Source: Patescibacteria group bacterium
Lineage (GTDB): Bacteria; Patescibacteriota; Microgenomatia; 0-14-0-10-38-17
Assembly: GCA_050953885.1 (NCBI GenBank)
Contig: JBMNNJ010000001.1
Span: 143,437 to 207,436, forward strand
Length of the DNA stretch: 64,000 bases
Reading direction: 5' to 3'
Shown here: positions 22,389 to 60,205 of the stretch, one piece after another
Numbering within the stretch: the first letter of the stretch is position 1
Layout: each line of letters starts with the position of its first letter
The notes under the pieces: generated by a model
The model's input: the letters and a program-made list of their open reading frames with translations, nothing else
Told to the model about the DNA's origin: nothing
The model's database searches: none
Program-made: the position numbers and the translations under genes

Positions 22389-22454
22389 CGCTAGTTGTAA
22401 AAAGATTTGGTTTTTATTATAGCGTATTTATTAACAAGTAATACGTAACTCGTA

Positions 22455-22545
22455 ACTGGTAACTAACGCAGATTCTGACTTTCGTCAGAATGACAGAAAA
22501 GTGCCAGAATGACAATTACGATTATCGTCAAAATGACGGAGCAAG
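22455..22545. repeat. Family-A hairpin repeat block abutting the 3' end of the paralog gene
   Basis: aacgcagattctgactttcgtcagaatgac... The gene stop lies at the repeat boundary. Confidence 0.8.
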
Positions 22546-23151
22546 CTCTCCCGGATCACGGATGGTGAAGGGAAGGCGGTCACTTTCCCGGCCATCATAT
22601 TTTTTAACATACAAGTCGCCTTTAAAAAAACGAGGCGGGTGGGGCTGAACGGCAACAATTTTTTCTTCCCCCCATTCTTTGATTTGAAATTCAAGGTCGT
22701 CAACAAAAACTTTTCCCGGTTGCCAAGCGGGCCCAAAATTTTTGCCTTCAATAATAATTTCCATCCCCACCATTGACCAATTGATCTCTTTTGGCTCACC
22801 CACCGTGGCCCATGAAGAAAGAATTCGGTAAATTTTTGGCTCTTCCTGTAGACGCTGGTAAAAATCAGTATAGACACGGTTAACCACCAAACCCACCAAC
22901 AAGGCGGTGAAAAAAACCGGCCAAAATTTAGCACCAACTTCCCTTGCCCGACGGGAAAAATAGTTAACCGAAAAGACTGCCAAAAAAACCGCCAGAAGCA
23001 AAAAGGTTTTTTGAGACGAGGAAATATGCTTTAAAACCAAAAATTTTTCCGTTAAAAGATATTCGGCGGGAATAATTAAAAGAAAGTAGAAAATAATGGT
23101 TTGGGCAACCACAAGCAGGTTAGGGAGAAGAAATTTTTTAAAAAAAGCCAT
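22528..23151 (-). CDS. Small membrane protein (3 N-terminal TM helices plus C-terminal domain), tandem paralog 1
   Basis: 207 aa, about 90% identical to the 23409..24032 product. Confidence 0.55.
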   Translation of the reverse strand: MAFFKKFLLPNLLVVAQTIIFYFLLIIPAEYLLTEKFLVLKHISSSQKTFLLLAVFLAVFSVNYFSRRAREVGAKFWPVFFTALLVGLVVNRVYTDFYQRLQEEPKIYRILSSWATVGEPKEINWSMVGMEIIIEGKNFGPAWQPGKVFVDDLEFQIKEWGEEKIVAVQPHPPRFFKGDLYVKKYDGRESDRLPFTIRDPGELAPSF

Positions 23152-23225
23152 TGATAAGAAAAGTATAACACTAATCGGGGAACGCGTAACTGGTAACTGG
23201 TAATACGTAATACGTAACTCGTAAC

Positions 23226-23440
23226 TGGTAACTAACGCAGATTCTGACTTTCGTCAGAATGACGGTTAGAGGAAGCACCAGGATGACGACGGTCGCGCCG
23301 TCATTCCGGACTTGATCCGGAATCTGTGCTATTGCCAGAAAACGCAGATTCTGACTTTCGTCAGAATGACGGCTAGGGGAAGCGTCAGAATGACGGTTAC
23401 GATTAGCGTCAGAATGACGGAGCAAGCTCTCCCGGATCAC
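23226..23440. repeat. Family-A composite repeat block between the tandem paralogs
   Basis: Contains the H1, H2 and gtcagaatgacg modules. Confidence 0.85.
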
Positions 23441-24032
23441 GGATGGTGAAAGGGAGGCGGCTACTTTCCCGACCATTATATTTTTGAACATACAAGCCGC
23501 CTTTAAAAAAATGGGGCGGGTGGGGCTGAATAACAATAATTTTCTCTTCTCCCCATTCTTTGATTTGAAATTCAAGGCCGTCAACAAAAACTTTTCCCGG
23601 TTGCCAAGCGGGCCCAAAATTTTTACCGTCAATAATAATTTCCATTCCCACCATTGACCAATCAATCTCTTTTGGCTCACCCACCGTGGCCCATGAAGAA
23701 AGAATTCGGTAAATTTTTGGCTCTTCCTGTAGACGCTGGTAAAAATCAGTATAGACACGGTTAACCACCAAACCCACCAACAAGGCGGTGAAAAAAACCG
23801 GCCAAAATTTGGCGCCAATTTTCCTTACCCGGCGGGAAAAATAGTTAACCAAAAAGACCGTTAAAAAAACCGCCAAAAGCAAAAAAGTTTTTTGAGACGA
23901 GGGAATATGCTTTAAAACCAAAAATTTTTCCGTTAAAAGATATTCGGCAGGAATAATTAAAAGAAAGTAGAAAATAATGGTTTGGGCAACCACAAGCAGG
24001 TTGGGGAGAAGAAATTTTTTAAAAGAAAACAT
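23409..24032 (-). CDS. Small membrane protein, tandem paralog 2
   Basis: 207 aa. Same architecture and same repeat-abutted 3' end as paralog 1. Confidence 0.55.
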   Translation of the reverse strand: MFSFKKFLLPNLLVVAQTIIFYFLLIIPAEYLLTEKFLVLKHIPSSQKTFLLLAVFLTVFLVNYFSRRVRKIGAKFWPVFFTALLVGLVVNRVYTDFYQRLQEEPKIYRILSSWATVGEPKEIDWSMVGMEIIIDGKNFGPAWQPGKVFVDGLEFQIKEWGEEKIIVIQPHPPHFFKGGLYVQKYNGRESSRLPFTIRDPGELAPSF

Positions 24033-24054
24033 GACAAGAAAAGTATAACACTAA

Positions 24055-24215
24055 TCGGGGAATACGTAACTAGTAACTGGTAATACATAACTAGTAACTG
24101 GTAATACGTAACTAGTAACTCGTAATACGTAACTAGTAACTGGTAATTCGTAACTCGTAACTGGTAATTCGTAACTAGTAACTGGTAATACGTAACTCGT
24201 AACTGGTAACTAACG
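24055..24215. repeat. GTAACT-type minisatellite (7-bp units NGTAAYW with 21-bp higher-order period, about 8 periods)
   Basis: gtaactagtaactggtaatac repeated. Shorter arrays at 22430-22455, 23170-23225, 4617-4672 and 50590-50690. Confidence 0.85.
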
Positions 24216-24535
24216 CAGATTCTGACTTTCGTCAGAATGACGGCTAGGGGAAGCGTCAGAATGACAATTACGATTAGCGTCATTCTGAACTTGATTCAGA
24301 ATCTGTTTTAAAAAAAACTAAAACGCAGATTCTGACTTTCGTCAGAATGACAGAAAAGCGGCAGGATGACAACAGTCGTGCCGTCATTCCGGACTTGATC
24401 CGGAATCTGTATTATTGCCAGAAAACGCAGATTCTGGCTTTCGCCAGAATGACAAAAAAACGTCAGAATGACAAAGAAGCATCAGAATGACGGTTAGGGG
24501 AAGCATCAGGATAACGTCCTTATTATCAAGAAGCC
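24215..24535. repeat. Family-A composite repeat array
   Basis: H1, H5 (cattctgaacttgattcagaatc) and H2 modules. Confidence 0.85.
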
Positions 24536-25919: not shown

Positions 25920-26429
25920 ATGAAGAAAAAATATCTTCTTATTATTCCCTTGATTTTAATAACCATCGCGGCGATTGCCGCGGTAGCTTTTCCAAGAGGA
26001 AATCAGCCTGCTTTTCCGCCTAAAGAAGAAACTAACTTTTTTAAAGACGGTGAAAAAATTAAGCTTTTGGTTGAAAACGTTGAATTTGAGTCAGAGGTAG
26101 TTAAAAACCCGGCGGCGCGAGCCAAAGGCTTGGGGGGAAGAAGCGATCTTTGCCCTCAATGCGGAATGCTTTTTATTTTTGAAGCCGATGGCAACCATGC
26201 TTTTTGGATGAAAGACACGCTTATCCCCTTGGATATTATTTGGCTTGATAAAAATTGGCAGGTGGTGGATTTTGTTGCCTTTGCCCAGCCGCAGGCAGGC
26301 CGCCCTGATGAGGAATTGCCTGTTTACCGCCCAAAAACCCCTGCCCGCTATGTTTTGGAACTGCCGGGAGGGACGGTGGAAAAAATCAGGGGGTTTAAAA
26401 TTGGCAGTCGGGTGGAATTAGAAAAGTAA
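25920..26429 (+). CDS. DUF192-domain secreted/membrane-anchored protein
   Basis: N-terminal TM segment. GMLFIFEADGNHAFWMKDTLIPLDIIWLD matches the DUF192 core. Confidence 0.7.
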   Translation: MKKKYLLIIPLILITIAAIAAVAFPRGNQPAFPPKEETNFFKDGEKIKLLVENVEFESEVVKNPAARAKGLGGRSDLCPQCGMLFIFEADGNHAFWMKDTLIPLDIIWLDKNWQVVDFVAFAQPQAGRPDEELPVYRPKTPARYVLELPGGTVEKIRGFKIGSRVELEK

Positions 26430-26465
26430 GCTCCCGAGGTTTGAAGCTATTTAACTCCGGGGGTT

Positions 26466-26650
26466 AGCAAAGTTAGATCCTGACTTTCGTCAGGATGACA
26501 CTAACCGCCATTCTGAACTTGATTCAGAATCAGTCTTAAAAAAACTAAAACGCAGATTCTGACTTTCGTCAGAATGACAGTTAGGGGAAGCGTCAGAATG
26601 ACAGAAAAACGTCAGAATGACAATTACGATTAGCGTCATCCTGATAAGAA
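26466..26650. repeat. Family-A composite repeat block
   Basis: H1/H5 modules. Nearly identical to 24280-24360 and 29385-29460. Confidence 0.85.
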
Positions 26651-26680
26651 GCGATAAGATAATGGTGCTATAATAGCCTT

Positions 26681-28439: not shown

Positions 28440-28880
28440 GCATCAAGCTTTAAGGCCGATCCTGACTTTCGTCAGAATGACGGTTAGGGGAAGCGTCAGG
28501 ATGACGACAGCCGTGCCGTCATTCCGGACTTGTCCCGCCATAGCGGGATCCGCCTCAGGCAGAATCCGGAATTTATGTTATTGTAAGAAAACGCAGATCC
28601 TGACTTTCGTCAGGATGACGGTTAGGGGAAGCGTCAGGATGACGATAACCGTGCCGTCATTCCGGACTTGATCCGGAATCTGTGCTATTACCAGAAAACG
28701 CAGATTCTGACTTTCGTCAGAATGACAAAAAAAACGTCAGAATGACGATAACCGTGCCGTCATTCCGGACTTGATCCGGAATCTGTGTTATTACCAGAAA
28801 ACGCAGATCCTGACTTTCGTCAGGATGACAAAAAAAACGTTAGGATGACGATTAGTGAAAGCGTCAGGATGACGGTTACG
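28440..28880. repeat. About 4 tandem units (about 110 bp each) of the family-A composite hairpin repeat
   Basis: Each unit is gatcctgactttcgtcaggatgac-ggttaggggaagc-gtcaggatgacg-...-gtcattccggacttgatccggaatctgtgttattaccagaaaacgca. Unit 1 carries a nested ccgccatagcgggatccgcctcaggc insertion. Confidence 0.9.
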
Positions 28881-29178
28881 GAAATAATTCTGGCCACAAG
28901 TCCTTAAACTCAGGGTTACTTTTTCTAATTAATTCCAACTTCCATTCTCTTCGCCAACTTTTTAGCTGTTTTTCTCTCTTTATCGCTTCTTCTATGTTGT
29001 CAAAAACTTCAAAATAAAGAAGCTTGTTAAGATGATACTTTTTAGTAAAGCCTTCAACTAACTCCTCTTTATGTTGGCTAATCCGATGATAAAAATCGGC
29101 AGTTACTCCAATATAAAGGGTGGGGCGATCGTTACCCATAATATAAACAACAGCTTGCTTTTCCATTTTTAATTTCAA
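28876..29178 (-). CDS. GIY-YIG nuclease family protein (UPF0213/YhbQ-like)
   Basis: VYIMGNDRPTLYIGVTADFYHRISQHK (GIY...YIG). About 95 aa. Confidence 0.8.
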   Translation of the reverse strand: MKLKMEKQAVVYIMGNDRPTLYIGVTADFYHRISQHKEELVEGFTKKYHLNKLLYFEVFDNIEEAIKREKQLKSWRREWKLELIRKSNPEFKDLWPELFP

Positions 29179-29179
29179 A

Positions 29180-29500
29180 AACTAAAACGCAGATCCTGAC
29201 TTTCGTCAGGATGACGGCTACGGGAAGCGTCAGAATGACAATAACCGTGCCGTCATTCCGGACTTGATCCGCCATAGCGGGATCCGCCTCAGGCGGAATC
29301 CGGAATCTGTGTTATTATCAGAAAACGCAGATTATGACTTTCGTCAGAATGACAAAAAAGCGTCAGGATGATACTGACCGTCATCCTGAACTTGATTCAG
29401 GATCTGTTTTAAAAAAACTAAAACGCAGATCCTGACTTTCGTCAGGATGACGGTTAGGGGAAGCGCCAGAATGACAGAAAAGCGTCAGGGTAACGCCTCC
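29180..29500. repeat. Family-A composite repeat array
   Basis: H1, H2 with nested H4, and H5 modules. Confidence 0.9.
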
Positions 29501-33071: not shown

Positions 33072-34247
33072 ATGAAGCAATCTAAACCCATTTTATCAAT
33101 CATCATCGTCTCTTATAACACCAAGGAACTGTTGAAAGAATGCCTTGATTCCGTGGCTAAATCATTAGCCAGCGCTAATTTTAAAAGCAACCAAGAAAAG
33201 ATCCTGAATCAAGTTCAGAATGACGCTAATCGTAACCGTCATCCTAACTCCTCTCGCCGTCATCCTGACGATCCGCCAGCTGGCGGACAGGATCTGCCCT
33301 TGTCATTAACACAGATTCCGGATCAAGTCTGGAATGACAGTTTCCAAGTTCGTTACCCTGACTCTTCTCACCGTCATCCTGATGATCCGCCAGTTGGCGG
33401 ACAGGATCTACCCTTGGCCGAAATCATCGTTGTTGACAATAATTCCCGCGACGATTCGGTAGAAATGCTTGAAAATTTAAAATTGAAACTTGAAAATTCA
33501 ATGAAAATTGAAAATTTAAAATTGAAAATTATTATTAATAACGATAATCTTGGCTTTGCCAAGGCTAATAATCAGGGGATAAAAATAGCCGAAGGAAAAT
33601 ATGTCCTGCTTTTAAACTCCGATACTAAAATTGTTGAAGATAATTTTTTCCCAAAAATTATTAGTTTTTTGGAGAAAAATTCTGCGGTGGGAATTTTAGG
33701 ACCAAAACTAATTTGGGAAGACGGTAAAATTCAACCCTCGGGTGGTTATTTTCCTACTTTAGGTCGCCTCTTTGCCTGGGCTTTTTTCTTGGACGATTTA
33801 CCGGGCCTTTCAAAAATAATTAAAGCCTACCATCCCCACCCTAAGGACTGTCAAAAACCTCAAAGGCAAGACTGGGTTACCGGCGCCTGTTTCTGGGTGA
33901 AAAAGGAAGTTTTTGATAAAATAGGAATGCTTGACGAGGATTTTTTTATGTATGTGGAAGAACTGGAATTTTGTTTTCGCGCTAAAAAAGCGGGGTTTGA
34001 GGTGATTTATTATCCTCAGGCGAAACTTATTCATTACGGCGGGAAAAGCGGCACCGCTTTTAATACTGTTATAGGTGAATTTAAAGGCTTAAAACTTTTT
34101 TACCAGAAACACCAGCCGGCCTGGCAAAAACCGTTCCTAAATTTCCTCCTTAAGGCGGCCGCTTTTAACCGTTTTTTTTTCTTAGGAATTTTGGGGGGAA
34201 ATAAAGAAAAAAAAGAAATTTATCGAAAAGTTTTGGAAAGCAAGTAG
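33072..34247 (+). CDS. GT2 glycosyltransferase carrying an in-frame insertion of about 75 aa derived from family-A hairpin repeats
   Basis: N-terminus ILSIIIVSYNTKELL and EIIVVDNNSRDDS are split by NRNRHPNSSRRHPDDPPAGGQDLPLSLTQIPDQVWNDSFQVRYPDSSHRHPDDPPVGGQDLP. The DNA at 33196-33418 consists of the H5, H1+H3 and H2 repeat modules. Confidence 0.8.
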   Translation: MKQSKPILSIIIVSYNTKELLKECLDSVAKSLASANFKSNQEKILNQVQNDANRNRHPNSSRRHPDDPPAGGQDLPLSLTQIPDQVWNDSFQVRYPDSSHRHPDDPPVGGQDLPLAEIIVVDNNSRDDSVEMLENLKLKLENSMKIENLKLKIIINNDNLGFAKANNQGIKIAEGKYVLLLNSDTKIVEDNFFPKIISFLEKNSAVGILGPKLIWEDGKIQPSGGYFPTLGRLFAWAFFLDDLPGLSKIIKAYHPHPKDCQKPQRQDWVTGACFWVKKEVFDKIGMLDEDFFMYVEELEFCFRAKKAGFEVIYYPQAKLIHYGGKSGTAFNTVIGEFKGLKLFYQKHQPAWQKPFLNFLLKAAAFNRFFFLGILGGNKEKKEIYRKVLESK

Positions 34248-34297
34248 GCACTTGTAACACGTAATGCGTAATACGCAACTTGTAATAATTAATTATT

Positions 34298-35800
34298 ATG
34301 TCTCTTTTAAAAAATAAATTTTTTGCTTTGCTAAATTCCTTTCTTGATCACGCTTTGCCAATAGCAGCGCTGGTTTTGCTGGTTTTTATCCCTCTTTACC
34401 CTAAATTTCCCGCCCTTGATGTCCCCGGCACCTATGTTAAAATTCGCGTTGACGATTTTTTAGTGGCCGCCGCCCTCTTCCTTACTTTGCTTAAATTCCT
34501 CATTAACCGGCAAAAAGCCATGAAGGTGGGCATAAATCGAGCGATTATCCTCTACTGGGTTGTTGGCGGCGTTTCGCTTCTGGGGGCAATTTTTTCCCTC
34601 CAGCTGGTTTTTCCCCATCTGGCCATTCTCCATTTCCTGAGGCGAATCGAATATATGGGGCTTTTTTTCTTGGGTTTTTTTGCCTTAAGAAAGAAAAAAG
34701 AATTCGATGTTTTTTTAAACGGCCTTTTTTTAGCCACTTTTTTGGTTTTTATCTATGGCTTAGGGCAAAAATTCTTTGGCTGGCCGGTGGTTTCCACCAT
34801 GAATGAAGAATTTTCCAAGGGGATGCTCTTGCGGCTTGATGTTTGGGTACGTGTCAGCAGCACTTTTGCCGGCCATTATGATTTGGCCGCTTTTCTTTCT
34901 CTGGTTCTGCCTTTAATTTTGGCCTCTTTAATTAAAAGCCATTATCGAACAAAGCAAATCCTTCTGGGTTTTCTTTATTTTTTTGCTTATTACCTGCTTT
35001 TAAACACCGCCTCGCGAGTTTCTTTTGTGGCCTATTTAATCGCTATTTTTTGCCTGCTTATTTTCTTAAACAAAAAATGGCTGATTATTCCTGTGGTTGG
35101 CCTAAGCCTTTTGGGGATGCTTTTTTCCGAAGATATCACCCAGCGTTTTGCCGCCACCATTAAGATTGAAGCGCCCCGTCTGGCCGCCCGCCTGGAAAAA
35201 ACCCTTGACTTTCTTTCTCCCCAAGGATCGTCAAGAACTTCTTTTTTCCCAACACCCATCCCCTCACCCACCCCTGCCTTAACCCCTTCGCCAACACCTC
35301 TTACCGTCGTTACTAAAGTTACCCCCGGGGGGAGTAGGCCAACACCAACGCCAACGCCAACACCAACCCCCCTGTCAAGCGAAGAAGAGTTTTGGGAAGC
35401 GCAAAAAAGCGTTGAGCTGGGAGTAGAACGCTCGGGAGGAATTCGTTTTGATTACGAATGGCCCCGAGCCTTAAACCATTTTAAGAAAAGCCCGCTTTTG
35501 GGAACCGGTTTTTCTTCTTTAGGTTTGGCCACCGACAATGATTATTTACGCGCTTTAGGAGAAACTGGCCTCTTGGGGCTTTTATCATTCTTGCTTATTT
35601 TCCTTGAAGGGTTAAAATTAATTTTAGAAAAAGGCAAAAAAAGCTGGCAGGCCCAAGCAATGAGCGCTTCTGCGCTGGCGATGCTAGCTAATGCCTGTTT
35701 TATTGATGTCTTTGAAGCCTCAAAGGTGGCTTATATTTTTTGGTTATTACTAGGCCTAACCGTTGGCTACCTTAACGATGAACATCCCAAAAATTCTTAA
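34298..35800 (+). CDS. O-antigen ligase / Wzy-like polymerase family membrane protein with Pro/Thr-rich linker
   Basis: More than 10 TM helices. Large loop near the C-terminus. PTPTPTPTPTP low-complexity tract (35220-35390). Confidence 0.55.
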   Translation: MSLLKNKFFALLNSFLDHALPIAALVLLVFIPLYPKFPALDVPGTYVKIRVDDFLVAAALFLTLLKFLINRQKAMKVGINRAIILYWVVGGVSLLGAIFSLQLVFPHLAILHFLRRIEYMGLFFLGFFALRKKKEFDVFLNGLFLATFLVFIYGLGQKFFGWPVVSTMNEEFSKGMLLRLDVWVRVSSTFAGHYDLAAFLSLVLPLILASLIKSHYRTKQILLGFLYFFAYYLLLNTASRVSFVAYLIAIFCLLIFLNKKWLIIPVVGLSLLGMLFSEDITQRFAATIKIEAPRLAARLEKTLDFLSPQGSSRTSFFPTPIPSPTPALTPSPTPLTVVTKVTPGGSRPTPTPTPTPTPLSSEEEFWEAQKSVELGVERSGGIRFDYEWPRALNHFKKSPLLGTGFSSLGLATDNDYLRALGETGLLGLLSFLLIFLEGLKLILEKGKKSWQAQAMSASALAMLANACFIDVFEASKVAYIFWLLLGLTVGYLNDEHPKNS

Positions 35801-38910: not shown

Positions 38911-39317
38911 GGAAATAAGTGCGTAGAAAGAAAAACATTAGCAAAGCACACAGGATTAAACAGGATTTTTACAGGATAAAACAGAATAAATCTTGATGAG
39001 GTGATGAGTATATTAGCCTTATCGGTATAAATATATTTTACTGCTATATCAGTAAAAATTTAGAAGAAAAATAATTAACCAAAAACTTAATAAAGCTAAA
39101 AAGGAATTAAAACAGGGGCGATCGCCCCTTAAATAATTCCTTACCTGATAAAGATAAAGTTAGGCCTGTAATTTTTTCTATAGCAATTTAGTAGTTAACA
39201 ATTTATTCCGCCTGTGGCGAAACAATTTAACCATACTTATTTTATTGCGGCGCGGATTAAAAGTGCGCGCCAACCATTCGCTCATTCGTGTTAATTCGTG
39301 TCTTTTAACCATTAACA

Positions 39318-40514
39318 ATGAAACAATCGCCTGTTTTACTTTCCATCATCATCGTCTCTTATAATACCCGGGAGCTTTTGGAAAAATGCCTTGATTCCGT
39401 GATCAAATCATTAGCCGGCTCTAATCTTAAAAGCAACCAAGAAAAGATCCTGAATCAAGTTCAGGATGAGGCTAATCGCAACCGTCATTCTGACTCCTCT
39501 GGTCGTCATCCTGACCCCGCCAAGGGTGGGGCTAACCGTCATCCTGACGAAAGTCAGGATCTCTCCTTGTCATTAACACAGATTCCGGATCAAGTCCGGA
39601 ATGACAGTTTCCAAGTTCGTTACCCTGACTCTTCTCACCGTCATCCTGACGATCCGCCAGCTGGCGGACAGGATCTGCCCGCCGAAATCATCGTTGTTGA
39701 TAATAATTCCCGCGACGATTCGGTAGAAATGCTTGAAAATTTAAAATTGAAACTTAAAAATTCAATGAAAATTGAAAATTTAAAATTGAAAATTATTGTT
39801 AATAACGATAACACTGGCTTTGCCAAGGCTAATAATCAGGGGATAAAAATAGCCGAAGGAAAATATGTCCTCTTTTTGAATCCGGATACGATTGTTTTAC
39901 CCGAAACACTTCCTTTTATGCTTGAATTTATGAAAAAAAACCCCGCGGTAGGCGTGGCCACCTGTCGGGTAGAGCTTGTTGATGGAAAGCTGGACGAGGC
40001 TTGCCATCGGGGTTTTCCCACTCCCTGGAATGCCTTTTGCCATTTTTCGGGTTTGGAAAAACTTTTCCCCCATTCCCGACTTTTTGCCGGTTATTATTTA
40101 GGATATTTGGATCTTAACACCACCCACGAAATCGATAGTTGCGTCGGCGCGTTTATGTTAGTCCCTCGCCTGGTGGGCGAAAAAATCGGCTGGTGGGATG
40201 AAGATTATTTTTGGTATGGCGAGGACATTGATTTTTGTTATCGAGTGAAAAAGGCGGGTTTTAAGGTGATGTTTGTACCAAAAGTAAAAATCATCCATTA
40301 TAAAGGCGCCTCATCGGGAATTAAAAAAACCAAAAGCAAAGCCGACTTTAAAACACAAGAGAAGGCCATGCTTGCTTCAACCCAGGCGATGCGGATTTTT
40401 TACCAAAAACATTACCGGGGAAAATATCCTAAGCCCGTTGAGAAACTCGTTTTTTGGGGAATTAGTTTGCTTGAAAAAGCAAGGGTGAGAAAAATAAAAA
40501 AACAAAATGGCTAA
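39318..40514 (+). CDS. GT2 glycosyltransferase, paralog of 33072..34247, with in-frame repeat-derived insertion (about 80 aa)
   Basis: LSIIIVSYNTRELL ... NRNRHSDSSGRHPDPAKGGANRHPDESQDLSLSLTQIPDQVRNDSFQVRYPDSSHRHPDDPPAGGQDLP ... EIIVVDNNSRDDS. The DNA at 39436-39678 is hairpin repeat modules. Confidence 0.8.
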   Translation: MKQSPVLLSIIIVSYNTRELLEKCLDSVIKSLAGSNLKSNQEKILNQVQDEANRNRHSDSSGRHPDPAKGGANRHPDESQDLSLSLTQIPDQVRNDSFQVRYPDSSHRHPDDPPAGGQDLPAEIIVVDNNSRDDSVEMLENLKLKLKNSMKIENLKLKIIVNNDNTGFAKANNQGIKIAEGKYVLFLNPDTIVLPETLPFMLEFMKKNPAVGVATCRVELVDGKLDEACHRGFPTPWNAFCHFSGLEKLFPHSRLFAGYYLGYLDLNTTHEIDSCVGAFMLVPRLVGEKIGWWDEDYFWYGEDIDFCYRVKKAGFKVMFVPKVKIIHYKGASSGIKKTKSKADFKTQEKAMLASTQAMRIFYQKHYRGKYPKPVEKLVFWGISLLEKARVRKIKKQNG

Positions 40515-40759
40515 ATTGCGCAAAAATCTCAAAACGCAAATATCAAAAATAAAAACCTAATTCAAAATTCAAAAATAATAAATAAACTCAAATGTTAAAT
40601 CGCAAAACTCAAAACTACAACTCAAAACTAAAATCTAAAAAACAACTTTAAGCTTTAAAAAGTTTTAACATTTGCCATGTAGACCTGCCTTGCCGGCAGG
40701 CAGGTTTGCCATTTGCGTTTTGAGTTTTAAGCTATGGTTTTGGTCTTTGAGCTTGGTTT

Positions 40760-40960
40760 TGCTCCGCCAGCTGGCGGATTCATCAGAATGACGGCCACGA
40801 TTAGCATCATTCTGAACTTGATTCAGAATCGTTATTAATCTCTGAAGAACGCAGATCCTGACTTTCGTCAGAGCCTGTCCTGAATTTAATTCAGGAATGA
40901 CAGCTACGGGGATGATCCTGTCCGCCAGCTGGCGGATTAAATTTTAACTTTTGACTTTTT
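40760..40960. repeat. Family-A repeat block (H3 tccgccagctggcgga, H5, H1, H6 cctgaatttaattcagg)
   Basis: Seen directly. Confidence 0.85.
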
Positions 40961-43637: not shown

Positions 43638-43729
43638 AAACTCTAAAAGATTAAAGCGCAAAGAGCAAAGCGCAAAACCAAGCTCAAAGACCAAAACCAG
43701 AACTTGAAAATATTTTTGAACTTTGCTCT

Positions 43730-43930
43730 GGTTTTGTCCGCCAGCTGGCGGATCGTCAGAATGACGGCTACAATTATTGTCATTCTGAACTTGTCCCGCC
43801 ATAACGGGATCCGCATCGGGCGGGATCCAGAATCAAAAACAGATTCTGACTTTCGTCAGAATGACAATGACTGTCATTTATCCGTCGGTGGGCAAATTCG
43901 TCAGAATGACAGTTACGTTCAGCCCGCAGC
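43730..43930. repeat. Family-A repeat block (H3, H5 with nested H4, H1)
   Basis: ORF 43704..43943 is a translation of this repeat. Confidence 0.85.
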
Positions 43931-48239: not shown

Positions 48240-48355
48240 CGAAAACCGTCATTCTGAACTTGATTCAGAATCAGGATAGATCCTGACTTTCGTCAGGATG
48301 ACGGTTACGGAAATGATTCTGTCCGCCGGCTGGCGGATCGTCAGAATGACGAATT
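48240..48355. repeat. Family-A repeat block (H5, H1, H3)
   Basis: Seen directly. Confidence 0.8.
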
Positions 48356-50553: not shown

Positions 50554-50694
50554 AGCCACACAGCTAAGAAGAACTTCTTAAAAAAAGTTAGTAATTCGTA
50601 ACTGGTAATCAGTAACTCGTAATTAAAAAAAATAATTCCGTCTTTGATAATTACGAGTTACGCATTACGGATTACTGATTTTTAATTTTACTCC

Positions 50695-50850
50695 CTCAGC
50701 TAGCGGATTCGTCAGAACCTGTCCTGAATTTAATTCAGGAATGACGACCACGATTAGCGTCATTCTGAACTTGATTCAGAATCAGTTAGATCCTGACTTT
50801 CGTCAGGATGACGGCTACAGGGATGATCCTATCCGCCAGCTGGCGAATTA
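50695..50850. repeat. Family-A repeat block, preceded by a GTAAC-type inverted-repeat hairpin (50590-50690)
   Basis: gtaattcgtaactggtaatcagtaactcgtaatt ... aattacgagttacgcattacggattactga. Confidence 0.8.
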
Positions 50851-51172: not shown

Positions 51173-51314
51173 ATGGCAAACTTAAAAACTAATAACATTA
51201 TACCATCGGTGAAAATAAAAGAGAAACCAGGAAACAACTTTCGCAACCACGGGAGTTGATTATTCTTGACAAAAGTGTCATCTTGACTAAAGCCATGATC
51301 TATTTTTGATTCTA

Positions 51315-51500
51315 AATCCCGCCTGAGGCGGATCCCGTTATGGCGGGACGAGTTCAGGATGACGGTCAACGTTATCCTAACCCCGCCAAAGGCGTGGCTG
51401 ACGAAAGTCAAAATCTTTTTTGATCCTGAATCAAGCTTAGAATGACGGTCAGCGTTATCCTGACCCCGCCAAAGGCGTGGCTGACGAAAGTCAGAATCTG
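51315..51500. repeat. Family-A repeat block (H4 cccgcctgaggcggatcccgttatggcggg, H1 variants)
   Basis: ORF 51052..51411 is spurious. It spans the tRNA and the repeats. Confidence 0.8.
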
Positions 51501-55860: not shown

Positions 55861-58797
55861 TTAAAGAGGCTTAATAACAATTTCTTCTCCTTCTTTTAAC
55901 ACCCGGGCGCCGGTTTTTTTCTTAATTTCTTCCTCAAACTCTTTCGGCCAAGAAGGAAGGGTTGCTTCTATCGGCTGACCGGGAGAAAGAGAGGCTTTTT
56001 GGCGAGCAGTTTGCAAAAGTCTGATTAATTCCCTCGCTTCACCTTCTTTTTCCAAAAGAGGAGTCATTCTTGTGTCCAATCTTACCTTTAATTCTTCTCC
56101 GCCCTTTTCTAAAACCACTTTTTTAACATTAAGCTCTTCCTTAATTAAGCGCGAGAGGTTTTCCTCAAGCGACTCAACGCCACCACCCTGAAGATAAACC
56201 GCCGCTAACGGTTGTCTCACTTTTATCCCCGCTTCTTTGCGCAAACGGTGGCCTTGATTACAAACTTCCCGCGCTAAAGCCATTTTTTTCTCCAATTCTT
56301 GATCCAAAAAGCTTTTCTCTTTTTTCGGCCAATTTTCAAGATGCACAGAAAGACCCTCTCCTAAATTCTGATAAACCTCTTCGGCCAAAAATGGTAAAAA
56401 AGGAGCCAAAATTTTGCTCAAAGTCAGTAAAACTTCATAAAGCGTTTCCAAACAGGCTTGGCGGTCTTTTTTGTCTTCGTTAGCTGGCTCAAGGCGAGAG
56501 CGGGAGCGGCGGACATACCAAAGAGAGAGGTCATTTTTAATAAAATCCTGAATTAAGCCGCTGGCCTGATAAGGTTGATAGCAATCTAAGTTGGCGCTTA
56601 CCTTGCCAATAAGATGATGAAGACGAGAAAGAATCCAGCGATCAAGCTCATGCTCGCTTCTTTTACCTTGAGGAGAAAAATCAGCCAAGGTGGCATAGGT
56701 AATAAAAAACCGATAAATATTCCAGAAAAAAAGATGGAATTGACGGCGGGTTTTTTGCGCCAGATGATAGCCAAAATTAAGATTCCTTTGGGGCGGTTGC
56801 TGCAAGTACATCCAACGCATCACGTCTACCCCTATTTTTTCCGCCGCCTCATCAAACCAAATAGCGTTTCCCTTGCTTTTGTGCATTTCCTCACCCTTCT
56901 CATCGCGCACCAGCCCATGGCCCAAAATTGTTTTTGTCGGCGGCGAATCTTCAAGCTCGGTGCTCATCGCAATCAACGAGTAAAACCAATTACGATATTG
57001 CCCGGGAAAACACTCTAAAATTAAGTCCGCCGGATACCATTGCCGCCAGTAGATTTTATCCCCTAAGTAACTTATCTGCCCAGTTTTAGGATCAATTAGT
57101 GTTGAGAAAGAAATAATGCCCGCGTCAAGCCAAGGATTGCCTACATCCGCAATTCTTCCGGCTTTCCCGCCGCAAACAGGGCAAGGGATTTTAACCTTAT
57201 CAATCCAGGGCCGATGGGGAGTATGGCCAGCAAATTCTTCAAAACCTTCGATTGCCTTTTTCTCCAACTCCTCTCGACTACCAATCACTTCAAAATGACC
57301 GCATTTGGGACATTCCCAAATAGGCAAAGCAAGCCCCCAATATCTCTTCTTAGAAATAAGCCAATCGTGCATATTGTTAAGCCAGTCCAATTCGCGCTCC
57401 AAACCAAAGCTGGGAATCCAGGTTATTTTTTTGGCCACCGCCATCATCCGCTGGCGCAAGGTTTTGCCGTCGGCTGGCCGGGGTTTATCCATGGCAATAT
57501 ACCACTCGTTAACCAAACGCCAAACTAATTCCGTTTCGCACCGCCAACAAACCGGATATTGGTGGCGATAGTTTTCGGTGGCAAAAAAATAAAGACCGCC
57601 GTCAATTTCCTTAAGCTTCTCAATAATTATTTGGGGATTTTCTTTAGCGTTTTTGCCGCTTAATTCTCCATATCCTTCAAGATAGCAAGCTTCTTCGTTA
57701 ATCACCGGGAAAATTACTTCACCGTATTGAAGCACTCTCTTTACTAAATGATAGTCTTCGGTGCCCGCGCCGGGAACAAGATGAACCACCCCCGTGCCTT
57801 CCTCTTCAGTAACCAAATCGGGGGCAAAAACAACTTCATGAAAGTGGGGGCTTTTCCCAACTTTTTCCAAAATTGGCAAAAAATCAAAAGGCGCCTGATA
57901 ATGAGTAACTTTTTCTTTCTTGATTAAATCTTTTCCTTTTACCTCCTTCAAAATTTTATATTTTCCTGACGGAAAAATCTTCCCCGCCATTTTTTTCCCT
58001 AACCAATATTTCTTTCCCTCAAAAGACAGCAAAACATAATCAAAATCAGGGTTAATCGCCAAAAGAGTATTGGCAGGAATTGTCCAAGGAGTTGTTGTCC
58101 AAGCAAGAAAAAATTCATCTTTAACCAGCCGGCCTTTCTTAACCACCGGCAGGCGAAAATAAACTGCTTCATGGGTTACTTCTTTATAGCCTTCGGTAAC
58201 GATTTCGTGTTGGGAAATGGCCGTACCGCAACGCGGGCACCAGGGAACCGCATCCTCGCCCTTATAAATAAGGCTGTCTTCATGGCATTTTTTCAAAAAG
58301 TGCCAGATCGTGTAGTTATTTTCCTCGCTCATCGTGTAGTAGGAGTGGTCCCAATCCATAAAATAGCCCAAACGCTTAGATTGCTCGGTTTGGATTTGGG
58401 CAAAATGAAGAGTGTGGTTTTTACAAGCCTCAATAAACTTATCAATGCCGTAGGCCTCAATCTCTTTCTTGGTTTTAAAGCCTAATTTTTTCTCCACCTC
58501 CACTTCTACCCAAAGGCCTTGGTTGTCAAAACCATTTTGAAACCTTTGGGCAAATCCTTGCATATTTTTGTAGCGTTGAAAAAGATCCTTATAAGTTCTT
58601 CCCCAAGCATGATGAATGCCCATGGGGTTATTGGCGGTAATCGGGCCGTCAAAGAAAGAAAAACGCCGCGAAGAGTGCTGGTTTTTCCTTAAATATTTTT
58701 CCAAAACCTTCTTTTCTTCCCAATAGGAAAGCCAATGATGCTCTTGGGCAACAAAATCGGGGTTTGCCTCCACCGGCGAAAATTTTTTCTTCCGCAT
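55861..58797 (-). CDS. ileS: Class I aminoacyl-tRNA synthetase, most likely isoleucine--tRNA ligase (type 2-like)
   Basis: HIGH-type motif PMGIHHAWGRTYKD, KMSKS-type MHKSKGN, and Zn-ribbon cysteines CPRCG/CPKCG. About 979 aa. IleRS versus ValRS was not resolved by eye. Confidence 0.6.
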   Translation of the reverse strand: MRKKKFSPVEANPDFVAQEHHWLSYWEEKKVLEKYLRKNQHSSRRFSFFDGPITANNPMGIHHAWGRTYKDLFQRYKNMQGFAQRFQNGFDNQGLWVEVEVEKKLGFKTKKEIEAYGIDKFIEACKNHTLHFAQIQTEQSKRLGYFMDWDHSYYTMSEENNYTIWHFLKKCHEDSLIYKGEDAVPWCPRCGTAISQHEIVTEGYKEVTHEAVYFRLPVVKKGRLVKDEFFLAWTTTPWTIPANTLLAINPDFDYVLLSFEGKKYWLGKKMAGKIFPSGKYKILKEVKGKDLIKKEKVTHYQAPFDFLPILEKVGKSPHFHEVVFAPDLVTEEEGTGVVHLVPGAGTEDYHLVKRVLQYGEVIFPVINEEACYLEGYGELSGKNAKENPQIIIEKLKEIDGGLYFFATENYRHQYPVCWRCETELVWRLVNEWYIAMDKPRPADGKTLRQRMMAVAKKITWIPSFGLERELDWLNNMHDWLISKKRYWGLALPIWECPKCGHFEVIGSREELEKKAIEGFEEFAGHTPHRPWIDKVKIPCPVCGGKAGRIADVGNPWLDAGIISFSTLIDPKTGQISYLGDKIYWRQWYPADLILECFPGQYRNWFYSLIAMSTELEDSPPTKTILGHGLVRDEKGEEMHKSKGNAIWFDEAAEKIGVDVMRWMYLQQPPQRNLNFGYHLAQKTRRQFHLFFWNIYRFFITYATLADFSPQGKRSEHELDRWILSRLHHLIGKVSANLDCYQPYQASGLIQDFIKNDLSLWYVRRSRSRLEPANEDKKDRQACLETLYEVLLTLSKILAPFLPFLAEEVYQNLGEGLSVHLENWPKKEKSFLDQELEKKMALAREVCNQGHRLRKEAGIKVRQPLAAVYLQGGGVESLEENLSRLIKEELNVKKVVLEKGGEELKVRLDTRMTPLLEKEGEARELIRLLQTARQKASLSPGQPIEATLPSWPKEFEEEIKKKTGARVLKEGEEIVIKPL

Positions 58798-58843
58798 GCT
58801 CTTTATTATAATACAAAAATTTACCAACAAAAAAACTAACTTT

Positions 58844-59706
58844 CCCGAGGTTCCTGCCTAATCAACCCCCGGAGTTGATTAGCTTGCAACCTCGGGGAAA
58901 AACTAATTACTAAATTACCAAGTGTTTTATTATTTCTAACTCTCTCTGATAGCCAGCTTGATCAAAAAGAAATTCTTGGTATGTTTGAAAATCTTTAAAA
59001 TAAGACATCACTGTATCTGTCTGGCAAAACCCCTTTTGCCTGTCTAAATATTGGCCCAATGATGACCAGGGGTAAAAAACCAATTCGTCAAGATCTTTGA
59101 CTATCGCCGCCGAATAAGGATTTAGATGAATATAGCGTGAAAGATGAAGAAGCTGCTCTTCCGTTTCCACTAATACTGCCTTAAAACGCCCCTGGAAAAG
59201 AGGCCCAACGCGCTCGTTTTTTTTATTGAAATACCGCGTGTGACTATTTTCTAAATTAGTCAAAAAATTAAGAATTCCATTGTCTTCTCTTTGCTTTAAA
59301 AGAAAATGAAAATGGTTAGGCATTAAGCAAAAGCAAATAATTTCTACTTGGGTTTTATCTTCTTTTTCCAAAGACATAAGAATCTCTTCTTTCTCTTCTC
59401 TGGGCATTTCAACAAACTTTGAATAACTCCCTGGATAATTATTAAAACGATAATAATTCATTAGCTTAATAAATCTTTCATAGTCTTTTTTACCAGAATT
59501 TAAAAAAATTGGCCTCGAATCAACGCCACGGTTAAAAATATGGTAATAGTGATCATTTACTAAGGGAATCTCTCTTCTGGGCATATATGATTATTTTTTA
59601 TCATTATCACCACTTTATTTCAAGCCATAACGAGTTGTAAAAACGGGATATATCCCGAGGTTCCTGCCTAATCAACCCCCGGAGTTGATTAGCTTGCAAC
59701 CTCGGG
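58844..59706 (-). mobile_element. IS200/IS605-like unit: Y1 HUH transposase gene flanked by two direct copies of a 54-nt imperfect hairpin
   Basis: Identical cccgaggttcctgcctaatcaacccccggagttgattagcttgcaacctcggg at 58844-58897 and 59654-59706 on the same strand. A partial third copy lies at 26431. Confidence 0.7.
58910..59584 (-). CDS. tnpA: IS200/IS605-family TnpA-like / REP-associated tyrosine transposase (RAYT)-like HUH enzyme
   Basis: YHIFNRGVDSRPIF N-terminal motif. MPNHFHFLL (HuH). Catalytic-Tyr motif RYIHLNPYSAAIV (Y..NP). 224 aa. Confidence 0.75.
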   Translation of the reverse strand: MPRREIPLVNDHYYHIFNRGVDSRPIFLNSGKKDYERFIKLMNYYRFNNYPGSYSKFVEMPREEKEEILMSLEKEDKTQVEIICFCLMPNHFHFLLKQREDNGILNFLTNLENSHTRYFNKKNERVGPLFQGRFKAVLVETEEQLLHLSRYIHLNPYSAAIVKDLDELVFYPWSSLGQYLDRQKGFCQTDTVMSYFKDFQTYQEFLFDQAGYQRELEIIKHLVI

Positions 59707-59800
59707 AAAAAGTAAATCCCTCTTTCCCTATTTACCTCTTGACAAGGAGGGTCTTTTTGGTGGAAAATGGATGAAAGTGGTGAAAAGTGGAAAAAGATCT

Positions 59801-60205
59801 ATGTTTTTAGGCACTTACCCGATATCATTTTCAAAAGAAAAAAATCGTCTGGCGCTGCCCGCCAAAATAAGAAATGAATTAAGCGGTCAGGCAGCCGTTT
59901 TAACGCGAGGTTTTGAAGGGTGTATCTTAGGCTACGACAAAAGAGAATGGGAAAAATCAGTCAACCGGGAATTAGAAACGCCAATTACCGAAGAAAGGGG
60001 ACGAGATATCCGCCGTTATCTTTTCTCGGCCGCGGCCATTGTTAAATTTGATCGTCAGGGAAGAATTGTTATCCCCACGATGTTAGCCGACTATGCCCAA
60101 TTAGCAGAAAAATTAGTCGTGGTTGGCGCCGGTGATCACTTTGAAATTTGGGAAGAAAGCCTATGGAAAAAACATCTAAACAAAATAAATCAGGCTTGGA
60201 AATAA
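59801..60205 (+). CDS. mraZ: Transcriptional regulator MraZ
   Basis: MFLGTYPISFSKEKNRLALPAKIR ... RQGRIVIP. Two MraZ half-domains. Confidence 0.85.
   Translation: MFLGTYPISFSKEKNRLALPAKIRNELSGQAAVLTRGFEGCILGYDKREWEKSVNRELETPITEERGRDIRRYLFSAAAIVKFDRQGRIVIPTMLADYAQLAEKLVVVGAGDHFEIWEESLWKKHLNKINQAWK

Follow-up and report, generated by a model that had tools for sequence, protein, structure and literature searches.

A Y1 transposase-like gene between identical direct hairpins in a Patescibacteria genome, and the dispersed repeat family of its flanks

Results

A Y1 gene lies between two identical hairpins

We analyzed a 64-kb stretch of DNA from a Patescibacteria group bacterium (contig JBMNNJ010000001.1, positions 143,437 to 207,436; hereafter the window, or W in comparisons), in which a gene for a Y1/HUH transposase-like protein stands between two copies of a hairpin. 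Other loci, retrieved as homologue or metagenome loci and contigs, carry L-numbers. The gene (58910..59584, minus strand) is a 224-aa open reading frame (ORF) with the motifs HYYHIFNRG, MPNHFHFLL and SRYIHLNP. Its downstream neighbor on the same strand is ileS (55861-58830), and its upstream neighbor is the divergent mraZ (59771-60205, plus strand). The upstream hairpin (59653..59706) sits between the divergent mraZ and Y1 genes; the downstream one (58843..58896) begins 14 nt past the Y1 stop codon, ahead of ileS. The two are 100% identical and have the same orientation.

The shared sequence is a 53-mer, CCCGAGGTTCCTGCCTAATCAACCCCCGGAGTTGATTAGCTTGCAACCTCGGG, present as two exact copies on the plus strand (58844-58896 and 59654-59706), that is, as direct repeats. 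The preceding 5' T extends the identity to 54 nt. No exact direct repeat of 53 nt is expected by chance (100 shuffles). Each copy is a doublet, in which two inverted units of 33 nt overlap and have the core AACCC-CCG-GAGTT in common. As single-stranded DNA, either strand folds into an imperfect hairpin of -16.8 to -22.5 kcal/mol (z -5.5 to -6.8), an energy matched by 0 of 200 shuffles.

The core, AACNCCNGGNGTT, occurs at three sites in the window, against 0.05 expected: in both flanks and in a partial copy at 26433-26465 (CCCGAGGTTTGAAGCTATTTAACTCCGGGGGTT), 3 nt past the stop codon of an ORF at 25920-26429. Together with the T before it, this degenerate half copy (26432..26465, plus strand; T + CCCGAGGTTTGAAGCTATTTAAC + TCCGGGGGTT) is a solo singlet of the same repeat family, and it is fused to an array of other hairpin modules that we call family A. 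The initial annotation, made from the sequence of the window, had described a 224-aa HUH protein with these motifs between identical direct hairpins, which we confirmed in every respect, and the partial copy that it placed near 26431 is real. It had also found no TnpB/IscB partner; indeed, the 64-kb window holds no tnpB/iscB-like ORF, and tblastn across it found no second Y1 copy. An Rfam search of 58700-59900 returned no credible family, a terminator scan called neither flank hairpin, and the motif GGGGWSAS is not present in them.

The protein is a RAYT-type Y1 enzyme

The protein matches PF01797 (Y1_Tnp) at 38.3 bits, above the cutoff of 23, so the profile search that had been suggested as a check upholds its Y1 homology. 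Its catalytic set comprises the HUH histidines, His91 and His93, and a candidate catalytic tyrosine, Tyr151, in RYIHLNP. Across 110 aligned homologues, Y14, H15, H91, H93, Y151, H153, N155, P156 and S175 are invariant. The family, with proteins of about 224 aa, has the signature NHFH, (L)FQ, YIHLNP and WSS, and a conserved C-terminal extension carries YPWSS. The tyrosine motif is Y---NP, not the IS200-type Y---Q.

An AlphaFold (AF2) model built on the alignment reached a predicted local distance difference test (pLDDT) value of 93.8 and a predicted template modeling (pTM) score of 0.90. In Foldseek, its top match in the PDB was 4er8_A, E. coli TnpAREP with a REP (repetitive extragenic palindromic) hairpin, at E 2.9e-7 and a target-normalized TM score of 0.73 over 183 aligned columns of about 15% sequence identity. 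The TnpA chains of ISDra2 and IS608 fell behind it, at E 3e-4 or weaker and TM of about 0.54-0.65; the model fold also matches 2xma and 2a6m. Searching the PDB with the single protein sequence gave nothing meaningful, and the family profile gave weak matches to both ISDra2 (E 0.002, HUH region) and 4er8 (E 0.006, residues 42-174). Sequence profiles do not separate TnpAREP from IS200-type enzymes, and the discrimination therefore rests on the fold search. A tblastn search of plasmids was uninformative, returning only 25-43% identical matches that are mostly annotated 'transposase'.

Because of the Y---NP motif, the conserved tail and the best fold match to TnpAREP, we conclude that the protein is a class-2 Y1 enzyme of the REP-associated tyrosine transposase (RAYT) type, not an IS200/IS605 TnpA. 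The label 'IS200/IS605-like (or RAYT-like)' in the initial annotation is thus best kept in its second half, while membership in IS200/IS605 does not stand on the same three grounds. Within class 2, the protein fits subclass 2.1, which corresponds to the group 1 RAYTs of Bertels (PMC5581495) and to the TIRYT enzymes of TIRtrons (Di Nocera et al. 2013, PMC3733652). The published signature of subclass 2.1 is NH[YF]H, FQ (not WQ or WE), Y[IV]HLNP and an SS motif in the tail, in proteins of about 238 aa, and IS200 subclass 1.1 has DH[VI]H, Y---Q and a median length of 152 aa (PMC6006769, Table 1 for subclass 2.1). Our assignment compares motif signature and length with that table, with no reference 2.1 sequence aligned, and is to be read as a fit to the signature. 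Pfam gave no match to Bac_DnaA_C, HTH_23 or HTH_28 at E up to 1; within subgroup 2.1.2, the C-terminal helix-turn-helix (HTH)/TIR features are said to be heterogeneous.

Matching hairpins bracket the gene across the family

A word-indexed search for homologues saturated, with at least 7981 found at E up to 0.001 among 8000 scored candidates. Among the matches listed, nearly all are full-length (about 223-226 aa), and the few with a source name come from Microgenomates-type bacteria of the Candidate Phyla Radiation (CPR). An exhaustive search of 50%-identity representatives yielded 441 clusters at E up to 1e-30 and 8180 at E up to 1e-10.

We surveyed the flanks of the gene in 80 homologue loci of 12 kb from species-representative genomes, at 33-55% identity. 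Titled records among them are mostly Patescibacteria, with a few labeled Omnitrophota, Poribacteria or cyanobacterium. For each gene, the 400 nt upstream were compared with the 400 nt downstream, and the maximum of 150 mismatched-pair controls (32 bits) served as the threshold. Flank matches exceeded it at 45 loci, and a rerun with 200-nt flanks again gave 45, out of 77. The matching sequences sit close to the gene, some 20-70 nt ahead of its start codon and at +1 to +60 nt past the stop codon. As direct repeats, 34 of the 45 pairs match better, and 11 match better as inverted repeats; we read the latter as near-perfect palindromes that match almost equally either way.

The sequence of the flank hairpin differs lineage by lineage, and one metagenome-assembled genome (MAG) with two Y1 paralogues has a different hairpin for each. 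That every protein has a repeat of its own is the usual ground for linking RAYTs to REPs. The layout of a gene between matching hairpins is a family-wide property, and the hairpins change with the protein lineage. In homologues of 48% identity (L135 and L144/L149), the gene is flanked by singlets of the window's own hairpin family. These singlets are inverted, with their feet facing the gene, as in a classical REPtron.

Pairs of homologues share neighboring genes in 3/3 cases at Y1 identities of at least 70%, in 7/24 at 60-70% and in about 1% below 60%, indicating that the gene resides at one locus over the long term and relocates rarely. Among the 80 distant loci, a single one has mraZ/rsmH (L044) and a single one ileS (L046) near the gene, at 2-3.5 kb and not as its direct neighbor.

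Two side observations concern these loci. In L006, L007, L010, L015, L018 and L019, the flank unit contains a consensus TTGACA -35 box, and the downstream copy in those lineages could be an outward-facing promoter toward the next gene. Many records (L004, L005, L008, L012, L015, L020-L024, L039, L057 and others) have titles such as 'uncultured Gammaproteobacteria', 'Nanoarchaeia' or 'Bathyarchaeia', taxon names that seem untrustworthy and give no basis for inferring the host range of the Y1 family.

The cassette evolves apart from the surrounding chromosome

Six contigs encode a protein 75-100% identical to that of the window (L001/L167, L084, L002, L170 and L083). In W and in all of these contigs the Y1 gene lies between mraZ and ileS, and no empty or alternatively occupied mraZ-ileS site was found among the relatives recovered. 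The initial annotation had the unit 'inserted' between ileS and mraZ, a wording that does not sit well with a site occupied alike in every close relative recovered.

The hairpins themselves vary at this fixed position. Beside the 54 identical nucleotides in W, the flank copies of L002 are identical over 66 nt, with a hairpin sequence that differs from W; L170 has a third variant, its copies differing by one base; and the copies of L083 are identical over 35 nt, the downstream one being cut to half. The two flanks are alike within a genome and different between genomes, showing concerted evolution. On a flip in hairpin orientation between W and L002 the signals conflict: the loop suggests a flip and the arms do not (11 mismatches one way, 14 the other). 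In L084 (ERZ27249275 k141_248640, 760-1900), the cassette begins with an upstream hairpin of L002 type and switches to W type ~60 nt into the gene.

Nucleotide identity between W and L002 is 95-100% in the flanking genes and 60-90% exactly between the outer hairpin edges, which delimits the cassette as an evolutionary block (about 58830..59722). In comparisons of W with L002 or L170, the Y1 gene has a synonymous divergence (dS) of 0.98 and a ratio of nonsynonymous to synonymous divergence (dN/dS) of 0.09, and six neighboring genes have dS of 0.14-0.32. The relation is reversed between W and L167, where dS is 0.016 for Y1 and 0.104 for ileS. The Y1 protein is under strong purifying selection. 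Since dS is discordant in both directions, the history of the cassette alleles differs from that of the surrounding chromosome, which points to exchange of the cassette between strains as a block, rather than to fast adaptive change.

The hairpin is a dispersed extragenic repeat in two forms

We searched a metagenome collection for the hairpin (H) with the pattern CCCGRGGTT-N5-CTA-N3-4-AACNCCNGGNGTT, made degenerate over the known variants. It matched 102 stretches, and the 86 loci that we examined hold 100 sites in at least 42 flank-similarity clusters. Of these sites, 94 lie outside ORFs of at least 100 aa, though 81% of contig bases lie in such ORFs. Family-A modules of the window are present in 22 of the 86 H loci, tying these to the same lineage as the window.

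The sites fall into singlets (65), in which a 33-nt unit consists of the left arm and the core and similarity then stops, and doublets (35), in which two overlapping inverted units with a common core make up the 53-nt hairpin. In 50 of the 83 sites other than perfect doublets, the right arm is lost within one base of the ...GTT that closes the core (...GGNGTT). Because the search pattern required ...GTT, it dictates where this breakpoint distribution starts, but it does not account for the scarcity of intermediate lengths. Folded on itself, the core AACNC-CNG-GNGTT can make a 5-bp stem closed by a three-base loop. Among 33 unique singlets, the variable fourth pair of this stem is Watson-Crick in 17, with three pair types, a pattern that is suggestive but uncorrected for relatedness. 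The H hairpin is a dispersed extragenic REP-like repeat in two discrete forms.

A T occupies position -1 of the unit in 90% of 79 unique flanks. Nothing else beside the unit is conserved in these flanks: the tetranucleotide sought 5' of the left hairpin at the suggestion of the initial annotation is not there, in either a GTAG- or a TTAC-like form. Most singlets are not followed by a T run, and the upstream hairpin in the window lies between divergent genes, which leaves no terminator role there. The initial annotation had reasoned that its reading would fall if the flanking hairpins were generic terminators present at many unrelated gene ends. The hairpin is found at many, as the clusters and extragenic sites show; a REP/RAYT system leads one to expect just that, and the finding does not speak against one.

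Intergenic arrays around the hairpin units turn over quickly

At the site orthologous to the 26433 unit of the window, L091 has a full doublet and L105, L109, L118 and L131 have a singlet. Beyond the singlet, where the contigs extend that far, lie other repeat modules that differ between contigs. Over the whole intergenic region (26430-26680), the H unit stands right after the stop codon in all relatives compared (L091, L109, L131, L105 and L118; flanks 87-95% identical), and the module content is unlike in each of them where recovered. This region is a hotspot of repeat turnover, and the intergenic arrays turn over quickly. We looked here and elsewhere for a clean presence/absence case of an H site and rejected the candidates: most cross-matches were family-A repeats and not orthologous DNA, and the 26433 site is a case of doublet versus singlet plus array turnover, with no simple empty site.

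For a bacterium with a small genome, the window is very rich in repeats, and family-A hairpin modules form composite intergenic arrays in it. In 64 kb, CTGACTTTCGTCAG occurs 22 times, CCGCCAGCTGGCGG-like sequences 18 times and GTCAGRATGAC 41 times. The arrays lie at 1-320, 22400-24520, 26466-26660, 28440-29500, 33170-33420, 39440-39700, 40750-40940, 43720-43925, 48240-48340, 50680-50850 and 51270-51470. Tandem 7-nt units (GTAACTNG/GTAATAC..., with a 21-nt super-period) adjoin family-A modules, at 24033-24231, 23153-23239, 1778-1843, 34242-34307 and 50572-50637. We saw no mobilizer gene for family A in the window. On metagenome contigs, family-A modules often abut H units, as in ...ggcggacagaatcat.ttttCCCG.... 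This frequent adjacency is the one sign that they might be substrates of the Y1 enzyme; they have no flanking relation to the gene and no sequence resemblance to the flank hairpin.

Other features of the window

The leader or promoter region of the Y1 gene (59585..59652, minus strand) runs from the upstream hairpin to the start codon and contains weak sigma-70-like hexamers at 59641-59612, which match the consensus at a level not above shuffle expectation; in the promoter scan, promoter-like matches were no commoner than in shuffles. On the minus strand, a terminator-like mini-hairpin, CGGGATATATCCCG, followed by TTTTT (59657-59644), overlaps the foot of the upstream hairpin before this region and is only partly conserved in L002. 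Elsewhere, the otherwise unrelated contig L124 (2707-2880) shares with the window only a non-coding segment of ~170 nt (39026-39196, about 75% identity). It contains the hairpin GGGGCGATCGCCCC and might encode a small RNA or have a regulatory role.

Discussion

The locus is probably a resident REPtron/TIRtron-like unit, in which a single-copy, selectively maintained class-2 Y1 gene is bracketed by cognate hairpins that its own enzyme would process. By analogy with TnpAREP and IS608 TnpA, the Y1 protein would bind the folded hairpin on transiently single-stranded DNA and nick adjacent to or inside a unit, with Tyr151 forming a 5'-phosphotyrosyl intermediate and His91 and His93 holding a metal ion. 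The cut end could then be rejoined to another cut unit. Such rejoining would disperse units, excise or delete them and reshuffle them, and would keep the gene's own two flanks identical by concerted evolution. The hairpin-gene-hairpin block behaves as an evolutionary unit of its own, swapped between strains by homologous recombination via the conserved flanks and possibly by the enzyme itself; it does not move from place to place in the genome as an insertion sequence does. We infer both catalysis and mobilization by the Y1 enzyme, and this is the core weakness of the proposal. As mobilizer of the flank hairpin family, the role that the initial annotation gave it, the protein is a reasonable candidate.

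In the textbook example of a domesticated transposase, a RAYT keeps up a population of short mobile REP hairpins; such systems are known mainly from Proteobacteria. REPtrons have reportedly been described by Nunvar, Ton-Hoang, Messing, and Bertels and Rainey. The REPtron of E. coli TnpAREP and the RAYT-REPIN systems of Pseudomonas (subclasses 2.2 and 2.5; 4ER8) are the best structural match to the system in the window. They resemble it in having a single-copy HUH/Y1 gene, cognate palindromes that are also dispersed extragenically as singlets and inverted doublets, a protein and a repeat that co-vary, and a vertically inherited locus. Unlike theirs, the doublets here overlap around one apical core and are not two REPs with a spacer.

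The likeness to subclass 2.1 and the TIRYTs lies in the HuH, FQ, Tyr and Ser-Ser motifs, the length of about 224-238 aa and the low copy number. Repeats of moderately abundant families, in part self-complementary, border some TIRYT genes (PMC3733652). The published description is of inverted repeats, many of them carrying GGGGWSAS (PMC3733652), whereas the flanks here are mostly direct repeats of complete hairpins without that motif. The window protein also differs from subclass 2.1 in having no Bac_DnaA_C or HTH domain by Pfam, and its clade is centered on CPR/Patescibacteria, which the studies of subclass 2.1 barely sampled. The kind of system is known; this one is set apart by an enzyme that fits subclass 2.1, direct flanks of complete hairpins, overlapping doublets without GTAG, and a CPR-centered clade.

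Several results weigh against a REPtron-like unit. The closest NCBIfam model, REP_Tyr_transpos (NF047646), scores 50.8 bits, below its cutoff of 80. The flank copies in the window are direct, unlike the inverted flanks of classical REPtrons, and no 5' GT[AG]G guide tetranucleotide stands at the hairpin foot, nor is any such tetranucleotide found beside the dispersed units. Copy number here appears much lower than in REPtron and REPIN systems: the window holds merely 3 hairpin units in 64 kb, most other lineages show only two flanking copies per 12-kb locus, and unit copy numbers may be low in those lineages. We infer many H copies per genome from the several contexts per sample, on metagenome contigs that are unbinned; single digester samples such as Ga0265297 supply several of the H-bearing contigs. 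That an H locus has no Y1 gene likewise holds at the level of its contig, mostly of 1-6 kb, and a Y1 homologue is on the contig in 6/86 H loci. L084, a natural recombinant with unlike hairpins, implies that flank identity is not obligatory. Finally, neither automatic nor manual search found REP-like sequences near subclass 2.1 genes (Quentin et al. 2018, PMC6006769).

One alternative is an autonomous insertion sequence of the IS200/IS605 type, in which the direct hairpins would serve as left and right ends (LE and RE) on the active strand, and a single-stranded circle of the whole 0.9-kb unit would be the transposing form. The HUH/Y1 fold, the PF01797 match and the same-strand subterminal hairpins at both gene ends recall IS608 and ISDra2 of subclass 1.1, and direct hairpins are the norm in the family (34/45). 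A block of elevated divergence that ends exactly at the hairpins, dS values discordant with the neighbors in both directions, genomic contexts unlike between distant lineages and two copies in some MAGs would also suit a mobile unit. We nonetheless consider it unlikely. The tyrosine motif is Y---NP and not Y---Q, and the protein, with its conserved tail, is ~70-80 aa longer than IS200 TnpA, whose subclass has a median of 152 aa. In contrast to known members, the unit would have an LE identical to its RE; no target or cleavage tetranucleotide is conserved, and no tnpB is present in the window. Multiple near-identical copies were not seen in the 64-kb window, which has one copy, and paralogues within one MAG are only 52-66% identical. 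The locus is unchanged in all close relatives, pairs of at least 70% Y1 identity share neighbors throughout (3/3), and the hairpin occurs without a Y1 gene on the contig at 80/86 loci.

An att-like integrative element would explain the same layout differently: a circle with one hairpin would integrate at the center of a same-family hairpin in the chromosome, giving two full direct copies, and singlets would be half-sites from such events. The identical direct flanks fit such an element, as do the two discrete repeat forms, with the right arm lost right after ...GGNGTT in 50/83 non-perfect sites, and the exchange of the cassette as a block. The flanks of L135 and L144 are half units, which on joining would rebuild one hairpin; yet the outer arms of the target hairpin are not seen there, and the left limit of the breakpoints was set by ...GTT in the search pattern. 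Moreover, no empty or alternatively occupied site was found, and the breakpoint of L084 lies inside the gene, as fits ordinary homologous recombination. We regard this explanation as quite improbable. The same holds for the idea that the palindromes are host regulatory elements not moved by the Y1 protein, either terminators or double-stranded operators bound by the C-terminal helical domain, whose identity would come from gene conversion or selection for binding. H units are indeed extragenic and often just past stop codons, the downstream copy in L002 is directly followed by a T run, the upstream copy in the window adjoins a promoter region, and published subclass 2.1 tails resemble HTH domains. 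However, the upstream copy stands between divergently transcribed genes, the terminator scan calls neither hairpin and most singlets are without a T run. Pfam finds no HTH domain in the protein, which is under strong purifying selection and has HUH and Tyr residues that do not vary, and the intergenic arrays that contain the units turn over between close relatives.

Returning to the REPtron-like unit, a bolder and more doubtful form of this proposal is that direct-repeat REPtrons of subclass 2.1 exist across the CPR. Their enzyme might recognize the stem with its three-base loop (AACNC-CNG-GNGTT) together with a 20-nt 5' extension and cut at the center of the hairpin, which would yield singlets and doublets, cassette swapping, and arrays shared with family-A modules. 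Selfish or repeat DNA is unexpected in the ultra-small genomes of CPR bacteria. Our search of the literature for REPIN or RAYT in combination with Candidate Phyla Radiation or Patescibacteria turned up no paper on such systems in these bacteria; the two subjects appeared together only once, where KEGG K07491 came up as an incidental annotation in an archaeon.

Subclass 2.1, or group 1, is the largest Y1 subclass and has been reported without cognate repeats, which left its function open. Here, an enzyme of apparent 2.1 type has clear cognate hairpins, both around its gene and dispersed, in a layout that recurs across a large CPR-centered family. The defined 33-nt and 53-nt hairpin units offer a concrete, testable substrate for the biochemistry of the subclass, and a handle on the turnover of intergenic repeat arrays in streamlined genomes. 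If direct-repeat REPtrons do exist, they would be the first REP/RAYT-type systems described in Patescibacteria, subclass 2.1 would have cognate repeats after all, and these enzymes would help to build the hypervariable intergenic arrays that make a streamlined genome unusually repeat-rich.

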